Source: a virus (taxonomy: Duplodnaviria > Heunggongvirae > Uroviricota > Caudoviricetes). From it: a stretch of DNA of 44,309 nt. Position 1 is the first letter of the stretch. Each line of letters opens with the position of its first letter. Below are positions 2-39,732 of the stretch, in pieces. Under the pieces are notes generated by a model. The model saw only the letters and a list, made by a program, of their open reading frames with translations, was not told where the DNA came from and did no database searches. Both the position numbers and the translations under genes were made by a program. The stretch lies in IMG/VR virus record IMGVR_UViG_2684622542_000005; one strand, 5' to 3'.

Positions 2-199
2 CTATTACCTTCTTCAGAGAGCCCCCAGCTACTTCCTGTGACTCTCGATGCAGCTGCCGAACAGCCAGAATCGCTCGCAGAGGACCCGAAAACCCTCAGT
101 ATCAGCTGTGAGGTAACGTTCCGGCACGGGACGCTCCGCTTCAATGGCAATGTCAGCGAAAAGCTCCTGACTCTGCTGATACAGGAACTGAAGCGATGA
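2..199 (+). CDS. IS66-family accessory protein (orf1/TnpA), 5' end outside window
   Basis: Open frame from the window edge ending ...LLTLLIQELKR*; its stop overlaps the ATG of the following tnpB (ATGA), the usual IS66 orf1-orf2 coupling. Confidence 0.5.
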   Translation, partial: LLPSSESPQLLPVTLDAAAEQPESLAEDPKTLSISCEVTFRHGTLRFNGNVSEKLLTLLIQELKR

Positions 200-519
200 T
201 CCCGTTACCTTCCGGGATCAAAATTTGGCTGGTTGCCGGTATCACCGATATGAGAAATGGCTTCAACGGCCTGGCTGCGAAAGTACAGACGGCGCTGAAA
301 GACGATCCCATGTCCGGCCATGTTTTCATTTTCCGGGGCCGCAGCGGCAGTCAGGTTAAACTGCTGTGGTCCACCAGTGACGGACTGTGCCTCCTGACCA
401 AACGGCTGGAGCGTGGGCGCTTCGCCTGGCCGTCAGCCCGTGATGGCAAAGTGTTCCTTACACAGGCGCAGCTGGCGATGCTGCTGGAAGGTATCGACTG
501 GCGACATATAACCAGGTGA
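196..519 (+). CDS. tnpB: IS66-family TnpB (orf2), C-terminus probably clipped by prophage insertion
   Basis: 107 aa MIPLPSGIKIWLVAGITDMRNGFNGL...FIFRGRSGSQVKLLW matches the conserved IS66 Orf2 pattern; the last residues (ITR*) run into the prophage left-end repeat. Confidence 0.85.
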   Translation: MIPLPSGIKIWLVAGITDMRNGFNGLAAKVQTALKDDPMSGHVFIFRGRSGSQVKLLWSTSDGLCLLTKRLERGRFAWPSARDGKVFLTQAQLAMLLEGIDWRHITR

Positions 520-682
520 ATCATTTGATACCGACAAGGGGTTTAGTGAAAGGAGGTGAAATCACCTGTAAGATACTGAAATAAAACAGGTGATGGCTAG
601 ATGTGCGGATAAGGTCTATTTGATACCGATTGTGCAATAATTAGTCATTTATTATAAAATCGGCAACTCATTTGATACTGTG
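519..682. repeat. Prophage left end (attL-like): three putative transposase-binding repeats
   Basis: CATTTGATACCGA (522-534), CTATTTGATACCGAT (616-630), CTCATTTGATACTG (667-680); the reverse complement recurs three times at the right end. Confidence 0.55.
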
Positions 683-752
683 GTTTTAGTCTTTTAAGGC
701 GTTCCAAACAATGCGAAATACTCGATATAGTGCAAAATGCGGGCTAATGCTA

Positions 753-1298
753 TTAACCCGCTTTTGGTTCTACCGCGTTAGATTTGCGACTTCTCTCAGT
801 TTCTTCCAAAATCTCTCTGACGCGTTCGTCAGACATACCTTCAAGCTGTAATGCAGCTATTCTTTTCCTTCCTTCTAAGCGGATTAGATCTTGATTTTCA
901 GGCTCTAACAACCGAGCTAAGTACTTGGCTCCATTCAGAACCAAATTTTTCGATAGCTGCTCTAAGTCTTTTTCATCAAGTGCGCTGATAATCGTCATAA
1001 TTATCTTCTTGCTTTCATCTTGATTTTCCTTGATCTCACACCGATTCACTTGTGATGCATCACTGAATCCACATAGCCACTCAACACTTACTCCTTCGAT
1101 AGACGCAATCTGAAGGGCGACACTTAAGGATGGCTCAGTGCCACGAGACAGATAATTGTTTAGTGTTGAAAATGAAAGCCCCCAATCTCTTGCTGCAGCT
1201 CTGACGCTGCGGGAGCCAATCAGCCTTTTCAGACGCTCAGCAATGCTTTCTTTTCTACCACCAGGAAAAGAAAGAGATGTTGTTGTTTGCTTGTTCAT
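753..1298 (-). CDS. Prophage repressor (Mu c-like position, HTH DNA-binding)
   Basis: 181 aa, leftward gene at the left end, divergent from the early operon; N-terminal helix-turn-helix (SVRAAARDWGLSFSTLNNYL), coiled-coil-like C-terminus. Confidence 0.7.
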   Translation of the reverse strand: MNKQTTTSLSFPGGRKESIAERLKRLIGSRSVRAAARDWGLSFSTLNNYLSRGTEPSLSVALQIASIEGVSVEWLCGFSDASQVNRCEIKENQDESKKIIMTIISALDEKDLEQLSKNLVLNGAKYLARLLEPENQDLIRLEGRKRIAALQLEGMSDERVREILEETERSRKSNAVEPKAG

Positions 1299-1578
1299 TT
1301 TCTTTTCTTCCTATCAATTTGANNNNNNNNNNNNNNNNNNNNNNNNNNNNNNNNNNNNNNNNNNNNNNNNNNNNNNNNNNNNNNNNNNNNNNNNNNNNNN
1401 NNNNNNNNNNNNNNNNNNNNNNNNNNNNNNNNNNNNNNNNNNNNNNNNNNNNNNNNNNNNNNNNNNNNNNNNNNNNNNNNNNNNNNNNNNNNNNNNNNNN
1501 NNNNNNNNNNNNNNNNNNNNNNNNNNNNNNNNNNNNNNNNNNNNNNNNNNNNNNNNNNNNNNNNNNNNNNNNNNNNNN

Positions 1579-1719
1579 CGTAAAGCTGGCGTGGGTCAGA
1601 ACAATCTGTACAACGCGGTATACCGCCATGTTCCCAAGTATGAGGGGATTATCGCGGAATGCCTGGGGGTGCCGCCCGAGGAGATTTGGCCCAGCCGCTA
1701 CATTCGTAAGGTCGCGTAA
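1579..1719 (+). CDS. ner: Ner-like DNA-binding protein, C-terminal part (N-terminus lost in N-run)
   Basis: C-terminal ...GIIAECLGVPPEEIWPSRY resembles the Ner/Nlp family C-terminus; sits immediately upstream of the transposase as in Mu. Confidence 0.7.
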   Translation, partial: RKAGVGQNNLYNAVYRHVPKYEGIIAECLGVPPEEIWPSRYIRKVA

Positions 1720-1721
1720 TT

Positions 1722-38097: not shown

Positions 38098-38119
38098 TCG
38101 ATCGTTTTTGTCGATCGAT
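38098..38119. promoter_or_regulatory. Two GATC-containing TCGATCG heptamers upstream of com/mom
   Basis: TCGATCG at 38098-38104 and 38111-38117, 45-65 bp upstream of the com start in an AT-rich region. Confidence 0.4.
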
Positions 38120-38163
38120 TGAGTGATAAAGATATCAACAACAAAGCAGGAGGTTATGCGGCC

Positions 38164-38364
38164 ATGTATCGAAACATACGGTGCCGACATTGTAACAAGC
38201 TACTGGCACGAGCCAGCTTCAGTTATCTGGAAGTTAAATGTCCGCGCTGTAAAACCCTCAATCAAATCACATCTCAGAGCGCCACAGAGCACCCCACATA
38301 CACAAGGAAATCCTGTCGTGGGGAACAGAAAGCAAGTTACATCCCGTATCATCAGCACGCCTGA
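38164..38364 (+). CDS. com: Com-like zinc-finger translational regulator of mom
   Basis: [35 protein letters not shown]... parallels Mu Com (CxxC...CxxC, ~62-66 aa); GGAGG upstream. Confidence 0.75.
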
Positions 38365-39055
38365 ACTTATTCACTATAACGACAATATCGTCGGTTATGG
38401 CTCCCGTGAGTTACGGGTTGAGACAATAAGTTGCTGGCTGGCCCGGCTGGTCGTCGTCAATAAACATTACAGCCATCGTTTCGTAAATAATTCCTACCTT
38501 CATCTGGGCATATTTTCAGAACGGGAGCTGGTTGGCGTAATGCAATGGGGTTATGCCCTTAATCCAAACAATGGTGCACGCGTCGTAACTGGCACGCAGA
38601 ACCGCGAATATATGGAGCTTAACCGGTTATGGCTGCATGACTGTATGCCGAGAAACTCCGAATCAAGGGCAATCAGTTACGCGCTCAAACTAATCAGACA
38701 ACTTTATCCGCAGGTGCAGTGGGTTCAGTCGTTTGCAGATGAGCGTTGTGGCTGTCTTGGTGTCGTGTACCAGGCAAGCAATTTTGATTATGTAGGCAGT
38801 CATGAAACAACATTCTATGAACTTGATGGCGAGTGGTATCACGAGATTTGCAAGAATGCAATCAAACGAGGAGGACAGCGAGGTGAACATCTGCGGGCTA
38901 ATATCGACAGAGCCAGTGTTCATAAATTCCGTCAGTTTCGTTACATCCGGTTTCTGGACAAGAGAGCCAGAAAACGCCTTAACACAAAGCTATTCAAAGT
39001 CCAGCCTTACCCAAAACCACAAACAGTTAAAACTGGTTTGAAAGAGAGTGAATGA
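38318..39055 (+). CDS. mom: Mom-like DNA modification protein
   Basis: Frame overlaps the 3' end of com as in Mu; no in-frame ATG after com, so GTG 38318 is proposed (~245 aa); last gene before the right end. Confidence 0.65.
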
Positions 39056-39100
39056 ACGCTTAAAAACTCATTCTAAAACTCAAAAGAAAAGCGCCGATTT

Positions 39101-39170
39101 AGTATCAAATAAGTTGCGTATCGGCGTTTTTCAGCGGTATCAAATGAAATGCAAATCGGTATCAAAAAAA
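39101..39170. repeat. Prophage right end (attR-like): three inverted transposase-binding repeats
   Basis: AGTATCAAATA (39101-39111), CGGTATCAAATGA (39136-39148), CGGTATCAAA (39157-39166) are reverse complements of the left-end motifs. Confidence 0.55.
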
Positions 39171-39273
39171 TCGCCGCGCTATAGACAGCCTAAGCGGCTG
39201 CTGACCTCCCTGACCATGCTGTAAATCTCTTTATCCTGGTTGTCACAGAATAAGCCCGGTAAAATACGGGCTT

Positions 39274-39732
39274 ATGAACGACATCTCTTCTGACGACATC
39301 TTCCTGCTGAAACAGCGCCTTGCCGAACGTCAGTTGAAAACGAAACCGCTGCTGAAATCCCTGGAAAGCTGGCTGCGTGAAAAGATGAAAACCCTGTCGC
39401 GACACTCAGAACTGGCGAAAGCGTTCGCATATGCCCTGAACCAGTGGCCGGCGCTGACGTACTATGCAGATGATGGCTGGGCTGAGGCGGACAATAACAT
39501 CGCTGAAAATGCGTTGCGGATGGTCAGTCTGGGCCGCAAAAACTACCTGTTCTTCGGTTCGGATCATGGAGGAGAGCGGGGAGCGCTGCTGTACAGCCTG
39601 ATCGGGACGTGCAAACTGAACGGAGTGGAGCCAGAAAGCTACCTCCGCTATGTCCTTGACGTCATAGCCGACTGGCCGATAAACCGGGTCGGCGAACTGC
39701 TCCCCTGGCGCGTAGCACTGCCGACTGAATAA
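39274..39732 (+). pseudogene. IS66-family transposase (TnpC) C-terminal fragment
   Basis: ...DDGWAEADNNIAENALRMVSLGRKNYLFFGSDHGGERGALLYSLIGTCKLNGVEPESYLRYVLDVIADWPINRVGELLPW matches the conserved IS66 TnpC C-terminus; the N-terminal ~350 aa are absent. Confidence 0.8.

Follow-up and report, generated by a model that had tools for sequence, protein, structure and literature searches.

How did a transposable prophage come to lie inside an IS66 element that lacks about a kilobase of its own transposase gene, and did the phage remove that DNA? We addressed this question in a 44,309-nucleotide stretch of viral DNA (IMG/VR record IMGVR_UViG_2684622542_000005), here called the window. The first-pass annotation had placed the gap at the right phage junction and suggested an adjacent deletion or recombination between two IS66 copies. 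Our analysis points instead to a clean insertion of a 38.7-kb Mu-like prophage into tnpB of an IS66-family element that would already have been without 1,080 bp of its transposase gene, that is, to ordinary nesting of mobile elements rather than a phage-made deletion (probability roughly 85%).

The prophage, which is full-length, occupies positions 507-39183 on the plus strand (38,677 bp) and has the termini 5'-TATAACC...GCGCTATA-3'. Complete matches to both ends occur at varied loci in many E. coli genomes, and in all unmasked segments the prophage is colinear and 99.5-99.9% identical with the chromosomal prophages L006 and L007. The left end (507-679, plus strand) carries a 28-bp imperfect terminal inverted repeat (507-534) and three copies of the motif TTTGATACY (at 524, 619 and 671), and the right end (39101-39183, minus strand) carries three inverted copies (at 39101, 39136 and 39158) and the partner terminal repeat (39156-39183). 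Against an expectation of 0.52, the motif has seven matches in the whole window, six of which fall at the ends of the prophage, inverted, as putative transposase-binding sites. A repressor-like HTH protein of 181 aa (753-1298, minus strand; weak Pfam HTH_3 match) is listed as a transcriptional regulator in the annotation of near-identical prophages. It is followed on the plus strand by a MuA-type transposase of 695 aa (1722-3809; Pfam Mu-transpos_C 2.1e-17, HTH_Tnp_Mu_1 1.3e-08) and, adjoining it, a MuB-type AAA+ target-capture ATPase of 313 aa (3883-4824; Pfam Phage-MuB_C 7.8e-25, AAA_22). A tblastn search with the transposase matched those of SuMu, D3112 and RcapMu, the identity being 43% to SuMu and about 30% to D3112-like transposases. 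Further right lie an invertible tail-fibre segment (32703-34678) with inverted repeats at 32703-32788 and 33950-34035 (86-nt arms, 93% complementary), an adjoining Gin-like serine recombinase gene (34106-34678; Pfam Resolvase 1.6e-51) and, as the final phage gene before the right end, the DNA modification gene mom (38318-39055, plus strand; Pfam Mom 1.6e-77 and annotation of relatives). Judged by its MuA, MuB, Mom and Gin domains, its inverted end repeats and its colinearity with known chromosomal prophages, the element is a Mu-type transposable phage.

The flanks of the prophage were aligned to an intact 2,442-bp IS copy, L003, and the expectation that the prophage (507-39183) sits within an IS66 element, here of the ISEc8-like type, was borne out. 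The left flank opens with the tnpA 3' end of an IS66-family element (1-199, plus strand; IS positions 275-473) and continues into a tnpB reading frame of 107 aa (196-519, plus strand; Pfam TnpB_IS66 1.2e-37), so the earlier description of IS66 orf1 followed by a tnpB that runs into the phage end was correct. Compared with intact TnpB, codons 1-103 are native and residues 104-115 (QPKRLLTSLTML) are replaced by HITR*; homology to intact copies ends at 506 and the last four codons are phage DNA. On the other side, the start of the right flank had been placed no earlier than the C-terminal third of tnpC, but it picks up at 39184 inside the same tnpB codon at which the left flank stops at 506. The left flank corresponds to L003 5499-6004, and with a right flank that starts at L003 6001 the two overlap by 4 bp; in IS coordinates the left flank runs to position 780 and the right flank starts at 777. 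The next 137 bp (39184-39320) show no mismatch to the intact copy and comprise the tnpB 3' end, a 49-bp spacer and the true tnpC ATG at 39274. The tnpB remnant itself, with the last 12 codons and the stop (39184-39224, plus strand), matches L003 6001-6041 without mismatch and is contiguous with the left flank. The overlap is a direct repeat, GACA, with its left copy at 503-506 and its right copy at 39184-39187, so that the repeat at the exact termini is 4 bp long and not the 5 bp that had been expected. The sequence shows that an Sp18-like Mu-type phage was inserted by ordinary DDE strand transfer into an ISEc8-like IS66 element, at codon 104 of its tnpB, and that the event duplicated 4 bp of target and removed nothing. 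A tRNA search found none.

A 4-bp duplication was also present at five other independent insertions (GACG, TACG, GTGA, TGTG and AGAG), the last of which, in LC727895.1, had been annotated as a 4-bp duplication by the GenBank depositors; all six independent sites examined, the window included, therefore agree, and 4 bp rather than the 5 bp of Mu is normal for this phage group. A 5-bp duplication with the phage end shifted by one base either way was considered and rejected, the fifth base matching at one of six sites on one side and two of six on the other. Matches to the phage ends occur at about 290 places in 233 E. coli genomes. In the literature on 4-bp duplications in Mu-like phages, the GenBank annotation was all that was found, and no paper stating such a duplication came up. 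For the Sp18-like group, then, duplications of 4 bp and not 5 bp should be looked for.

The loss of about 1 kb of IS66 is real: exactly 1,080 bp of the IS are absent relative to L003. They are missing from within tnpC (39274-39732, plus strand), which encodes a 152-aa product made of residues 1-18 and 379-512 of 512, fused in frame. Pfam covers only DDE_Tnp_IS66 model positions 195-283 and the C-terminal element of this product, in which the leucine zipper, the zinc finger and the bulk of the DDE domain are missing. In L003 the missing segment is bounded by two 18-bp direct repeats at 6128 and 7208, 1,080 bp apart, which match exactly over 10 bp and extend to 17/18. The window retains one hybrid copy of the repeat, AACAGCGCCT(G/T)GCCGAAC (39311-39328, plus strand), with the crossover within 39311-39320. 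This is the pattern of a short-direct-repeat deletion of the slippage type, and replication slippage or another short-homology event may have produced it. The Pfam domains TnpB_IS66 and DDE_Tnp_IS66 place the element in the IS66 family, with tnpA partial, tnpB interrupted and tnpC deleted; because TnpB is truncated and residues 19-378 are gone from TnpC, the IS would be doubly dead.

Two other routes to the missing kilobase were weighed. One is that the Mu-type transposase removed IS66 DNA beside the right end, during or after integration, and the absence of about 1 kb on the right side only would suit this. Transposon-promoted adjacent deletions begin at one end of the element, and the target duplication at that end is lost. 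Here, however, the phage end and the deletion are 127 bp apart; the IS66 sequence between them is intact and contains the duplicate GACA, and both copies of GACA are kept. Moreover, the deletion endpoints coincide with the 18-bp direct repeat, the identical allele is found without any phage, and intact gene halves lie on both sides of the phage at four other insertion sites. The proposal fails already because the flanks are contiguous, and we consider it extremely improbable. The missing DNA begins not at the junction but 127 bp past the right phage end, and the tnpB end and tnpC start run on from the right junction, with the 4-bp direct repeat at the exact termini, so the idea of a junction-adjacent deletion or by-product of insertion must be given up. 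The other route is unequal recombination between misaligned IS66 copies instead of slippage within one copy. There are several IS66 copies per genome, and the junction sequence fits intramolecular and intermolecular events alike, but the homology at the endpoints is far under the usual RecA-type requirement and makes this route improbable for the 1,080-bp loss. By either route, the event would predate the prophage and be unrelated to it.

The deletion allele was next compared with its occurrences elsewhere. Exact-protein look-ups returned the truncated TnpB in 110 blocks and the 152-aa TnpC product in 457 blocks. Among the 28 longest contigs read for the latter, 26 carry the 152-aa product after an intact 115-aa TnpB and have no phage; they include that of Shigella sonnei 53G (HE616528.1; PMC5447701). 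The same allele beside intact tnpB in 26 long contigs suggests that the deletion is older than the arrival of the phage and independent of it. The deleted allele thus seems to be standard for one chromosomal IS66 copy in S. sonnei-type genomes, next to an intact tnpB. One observation counts against the best explanation. A single complete genome, CP176614.1 (L020), shares the tnpB::phage junction; its left junction is near 1,015,139, which would put the phage right end about 38.7 kb downstream, and no exact 152-aa product is recorded for this genome.

To the right of the deletion, the window does not follow the deleted copy throughout. From 39184 to 39769 it is nucleotide-identical to the deleted S. 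sonnei-type copy of 53G, and like the deleted copy it carries T at IS position 2105, which lies 337 bp short of the flank. The last 337 bp of the IS (39433-39769, plus strand) are identical in both resident IS66 copies, and the IS right end, ...GCACGCTTAC, lies at 39760-39769; the left end, GTAAGCG..., falls outside the window and was seen only in L003. In every long contig read, the deleted copy is followed by a phage tail-fibre gene flank (GGTAAACACCCC...), but beyond 39769 the window has the flank of the full-length copy instead. This flank opens with the 3' remnant of a Tn3-family transposase (39770-40231, plus strand; Pfam DDE_Tnp_Tn3 3.1e-51; sequence AAACAAAATGGG...), which was the IS66 insertion target; the IS66 element has an 8-bp target duplication, AAACAAAA, with its right copy at 39770-39777 and its left copy in L003 at 5217-5224. 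Then follow, on the minus strand and by the RefSeq annotation of L003, senB/tieB (40757-41932) and a cjrC-like TonB-dependent receptor gene (42001-44262). The best E. coli matches are plasmids, and a pAA/IncF-type plasmid context was considered; it was rejected, the flank being 100.000% identical over 4,540 bp to five chromosomes of 4.8-4.96 Mb as against 5 mismatches to the plasmid. In the long contigs read, the deletion goes with the tail-gene flank (n = 30) and full-length tnpC with the senB flank (n = 14) in every instance. The window therefore joins the interior of the deleted copy to the right flank of the full-length copy somewhere within 39433-39769, and because of this mismatch one insertion and one old deletion are not enough: either a real exchange or an assembly error is needed as well. 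Recombination between two IS66 copies, which had been offered for the missing kilobase, does not account for it and survives only as a possibility at this point further right, where it is indistinguishable from a contig mis-join.

Most likely the window is a short-read contig from an S. sonnei-type chromosome, and an assembly error is close to an even prospect. In that case the prophage would sit in the deleted chromosomal copy, with IS600 on its left and the tail-fibre gene on its right, and the assembler would have crossed the shared 337 bp into the flank of the full-length copy. Base 1 of the window is exactly IS position 275. In S. sonnei-type chromosomes this is the site of the IS600 interruption in the deleted copy, and it is also the point of divergence between the two resident copies; a start at this branch point between interrupted and uninterrupted copies is in keeping with a mis-join. 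So are the strict pairing of deletion and flank in every long contig read, the IS600 context of the complete genome CP176614.1, and the other public contigs with the same junction, which end at IS boundaries and disagree in their left flanks (IS1 in L021, IS600 in L020 and L023). In addition, a phage-free draft contig (L072) carries a similar join of the deletion to the senB flank that is not present in complete genomes. On the other side, 18 draft contigs of the L021 type have the left flank of the full-length copy, and their size (47.9 kb) is consistent, by arithmetic only, with that copy's right flank plus the deletion; if the arithmetic is right, the same double mis-join would have been needed many times. 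The T at position 2105, only 337 bp from the flank, also speaks against a mis-join, though a merged SNP bubble could account for it.

Alternatively, the phage may first have inserted into the deleted copy, which then recombined with the second IS66 copy or underwent gene conversion with it, so that the phage-bearing deleted interior came to lie beside the senB flank, as a converted copy or at the joint of a tandem duplication; we regard this as a tentative possibility. The two copies are direct repeats in the same orientation, 17-19 kb apart, the same tnpB::phage junction is recorded with both kinds of left flank, and the window combines the deletion, T2105 and the other copy's flank, a combination found in no other locus fetched. 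However, no complete genome read has the deletion at the senB-adjacent copy, moving the 38.7-kb heterology would take one crossover in about 500 bp of homology and a second in 337 bp, and the supporting contigs are all short-read drafts that break at repeats. The marker switch from the deletion and T2105 to the other copy's flank was likewise observed in an apparent draft contig only. That the whole 38.7-kb prophage was copied or moved between the copies through a few hundred bp of IS homology, or at the joint of an IS66-mediated tandem duplication, is rather unlikely.

Searches for records spanning either junction gave none in 5,426 complete E. coli genomes or in PLSDB plasmids, and exact-pattern scans gave none in GTDB species representatives or JGI metagenomes; from their descriptions and these misses, all four collections appear to be without Shigella genomes.

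Taken together, the results mean that the "missing kilobase" is not a trace left by phage transposition. Caution is needed with contigs that run through repeated IS66 in Shigella-type genomes, which can fuse the interior of one copy with the flank of another, and long reads are needed before claims about structure are made at such sites. If the exchange between IS66 copies were true, S. sonnei would offer a further case of rearrangement driven by IS elements, one that took a transposable prophage with it. Little depends on the finding overall.

Compared with known systems, the IS is ISEc8-like (the RefSeq "ISEc8 family" / "ISEc22 family"): it shares the tnpA-tnpB-tnpC layout of the intact L003 copy and 99.6% identity over the retained parts. 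L003 has the GTAAGCG... terminal repeat and an 8-bp target duplication; in the window, unlike the intact copy, tnpB is interrupted by the phage and tnpC is short of 1,080 bp, and the IS left end outside the window is in S. sonnei-type genomes further damaged by IS600 or IS1. The deleted copy of S. sonnei 53G is identical in DNA to the window between the 3' end of tnpB and the right end of the IS, deletion junction and T2105 included, and has the same 152-aa product; it differs in its intact tnpB, the absence of a prophage and a right flank made of the tail-fibre gene and then ipaH. On the phage side, Sp18 of E. coli O157:H7 Sakai and Sp18-like phages of STEC such as Mu_JNE122137 (LC727895.1), described as "Mu-like phages" of STEC (PMC10132054, PMC7430833), have a transposase with 94% protein identity and about 94% DNA identity, and share gene order, the right terminus and scattered insertion sites that, as here, include other mobile elements. 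The left terminus of LC727895.1 is TGTAACC and here TATAACC; unlike Sp18, the prophage sits in IS66 tnpB, and its closest relatives are not Sp18 but L006 and L007. A near-identity megablast of a 4.5-kb left-end segment against a phage collection gave four records, none of them Mu. With bacteriophage Mu the prophage nevertheless shares MuA-type and MuB-type proteins, three binding-site-like repeats per end, a left-end repressor, Gam, Mor, Com/Mom, a Gin-type invertible tail-fibre segment, a genome of about 38 kb and transposition into scattered sites. It differs from Mu in its 4-bp rather than 5-bp duplication and in termini of the form TA...TA rather than TG...CA; reported target duplications are 5 bp for Mu, 6 bp for B3 and 6 bp for Leptospira prophages, the last with TA-TA or TG-CA ends (PMC8705779).

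A base-by-base comparison confirmed that the Mu-like prophage (507-39183; 38,677 bp) lies inside an IS66-family element, as the first-pass annotation had proposed. The window starts within the 3' part of tnpA (1-199), which is overlapped by a tnpB ORF (196-519; Pfam TnpB_IS66, 1.2e-37). On the left, the match to thousands of IS66 copies ends at base 506; on the right, the IS66 match begins at 39184. Our reference was an undamaged IS66 of 2,442 bp that has the same surroundings on E. coli plasmid NZ_JBLWMF010000004.1 (locus L003), namely a Tn3 remnant on each side, followed by senB and a TonB-dependent receptor gene. 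Window 1-506 corresponded to L003 5499-6004 (2 mismatches), 39184-39320 to 6001-6137 (0 mismatches), and 39311-39800 to L003 from 7208 onward (2 mismatches). By these coordinates, the left and right flanks share 4 bp, GACA (503-506 and 39184-39187), and exactly 1,080 bp of IS66 is missing to the right of the junction.

The annotated loss of about 1 kb was thus real, but it had been placed at the right junction itself, from which 127 bp of unaltered IS66 in fact separates it. The first bases to the right of the phage belong to tnpB, whose last 12 codons and stop codon run to 39224; a 49-bp tnpB-tnpC spacer leads from there to the authentic tnpC start codon at 39274. The ORF 39274-39732, previously read as only the C-terminal third of tnpC, retains codons 1-18 and 379-512 of the 512-aa transposase, joined in frame; Pfam recovered only the final third of the DDE domain and the C-terminal element. 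The deletion begins and ends in copies of AACAGCGCCT(G/T)GCCGAAC that lie 1,080 bp apart in intact IS66, and a single hybrid copy is left at 39311-39328.

The deletion junction had no DNA match in E. coli complete genomes, PLSDB, GTDB representatives or metagenomes, most likely because these collections lack Shigella genomes. The exact 152-aa TnpC product was present in 457 blocks of public assemblies. In 26 of the 28 longest contigs read, it directly followed an intact 115-aa TnpB without prophage (the other two contigs were 713 and 721 bp long). Among the 26 was HE616528.1, the chromosome of S. sonnei 53G (PMC5447701), to which the window is nucleotide-identical from 39184 up to the last IS base, 39769. 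The truncated 107-aa TnpB that marks the phage junction was rarer (110 blocks). These phage-free alleles indicate that the 1,080-bp deletion is a pre-existing allele, older than the phage insertion. An adjacent deletion promoted by the phage, one of the mechanisms first suggested, is therefore ruled out, and the missing DNA does not call for the other, recombination between IS66 copies. Strain 53G also carries a different Mu-like prophage (~2.937-2.942 Mb; 696-aa transposase, 176-aa repressor) in a tail-fibre gene only ~700 bp right of its deleted IS66 copy, and thus a second, independent Mu-type insertion within ~2 kb of the window's site.

The duplication at the termini was GACA, 4 bp, rather than the expected 5 bp, a figure that derives from Mu itself. 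Duplication length varies among transposable phages, e.g. 5 bp in Mu and 6 bp in B3 (PMC8705779). For comparison, we took four further insertions that arose independently, in bcsA, a diguanylate cyclase gene, paaA and xdhA, together with the LC727895.1 phage, and examined both ends of each. All insertions compared shared the termini (left ...AACCAGG..., right ...GCGCTATA), and the direct repeats were exactly 4 bp at all five (GACG, TACG, GTGA, TGTG and AGAG); a fifth base matched in 1/6 cases on one side and 2/6 on the other. The GenBank depositors, too, recorded a 'duplication due to insertion' of 4 bp, and we found the length for Sp18-like phages stated in this feature annotation only, not in any paper. 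Because 4-bp duplications flank all insertions compared, the window prophage is a textbook simple insertion for its phage group.

The prophage encodes a MuA-type transposase, a MuB-type ATPase, Mom and a Gin-like recombinase, and each end carries three TTTGATACY repeats in inverted orientation (7 matches in the window vs 0.52 expected). In all unmasked segments it was colinear with, and 99.5-99.9% identical to, chromosomal prophages of E. coli HH35 and PO06021; related prophages occupied ~290 sites across 233 E. coli genomes. Window 32703-34678 is a G-segment-type host-range switch, in which 86-nt inverted repeats (93% complementary) surround a 1.16-kb segment with tail-fibre and tail-fibre-assembly genes, adjoined by the Gin-like recombinase gene; in relatives the segment occurs in either orientation or rearranged. 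Four N runs of 256-272 bases interrupt the window (1323-1578, 11395-11654, 24327-24598 and 35358-35625). The first masks the repressor-transposase intergene region, which in relatives holds the gene for a Ner-like HTH protein, and the last splits a DUF6645 gene. RefSeq lists a 'tRNA-OTHER' for related prophages between the head-morphogenesis and virion-morphogenesis genes (window ~17970-18090; 18276-18355 in the related locus L005); ARAGORN detected no tRNA in the whole window.

IS66 itself interrupts a Tn3-family transposase gene and has an 8-bp target duplication, AAACAAAA (window 39770-39777; L003 5217-5224 and 7667-7674). The nesting of phage in IS66 in Tn3 remnant is three deep, and in S. 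sonnei-type chromosomes a fourth level comes from IS600 or IS1. By eye, 40233-40480 holds two similar ~35 bp sequences, …GTACAATAATTT(T/C)C(G/C)ATATCCAAACT(G/C)ACCCC…, and a Tn3-type end, CGTGAGTTTTCGTTCCACTGAGCGTCAG; lying between the Tn3 remnant and senB, they look like further transposon-end debris.

Two IS66 copies, 17-19 kb from each other and pointing the same way, are present in S. sonnei-type chromosomes. One, c2, is bounded on the left by IS1, has a full-length tnpC and C at IS position 2105, and is followed by a Tn3 remnant, senB and cjrCBA. The other, c1, is interrupted by IS600 at IS position 275, has the 1,080-bp deletion and T2105, and is followed by a phage tail-fibre gene, then ipaH. 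Across all loci fetched, deletion and T2105 were paired with the tail-gene flank in 30 instances, and full length and C2105 with the senB flank in 14. The window's right flank was 100.000% identical over 4,540 bp to the c2 flank of five chromosomes and had 5 mismatches to plasmid L003; a plasmid location was dropped on this comparison, and by sequence the window appears to be chromosomal, of S. sonnei type.

The window joins the c1 interior (deletion, T2105) to the c2 right flank, a combination absent from every other locus fetched, and the switch is confined to 337 bp identical in both copies (39433-39769). A draft-contig mis-join is our tentative explanation (probability about 0.45). Base 1 of the window coincides exactly with IS position 275, where the two copies branch, and other public contigs with the tnpB::phage junction stop at IS boundaries and differ in left flank: IS1 in 18 contigs of one type (L021), IS600 in another type (L023) and in complete genome CP176614.1. 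A phage-free draft contig has a similar join of deletion and senB flank that is absent from all complete genomes read. The c2 left flank in the 18 L021-type contigs, whose length of 47,934 bp fits a c2 right flank plus the deletion, points instead to a real IS66-IS66 exchange; such recombination between copies could be the source of the right flank, but we consider it somewhat less probable. CP176614.1 (~1.0118-1.0182 Mb), which alone among the complete genomes retrieved has this tnpB::phage junction, shows the IS600-interrupted left context of the deleted copy; the exact 152-aa TnpC is not on record for it.

All parts are of known kinds: a Sp18-like Mu-type prophage, an ISEc8-like IS66 in a Tn3 remnant, and a short-repeat deletion. 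The nearest named relatives of the prophage are the Sp18-like 'Mu-like phages' of STEC (PMC10132054, PMC7430833). This group makes 4-bp duplications and has ends TA...TA (left end TG in LC727895.1), whereas Mu makes 5-bp duplications and has ends TG...CA.
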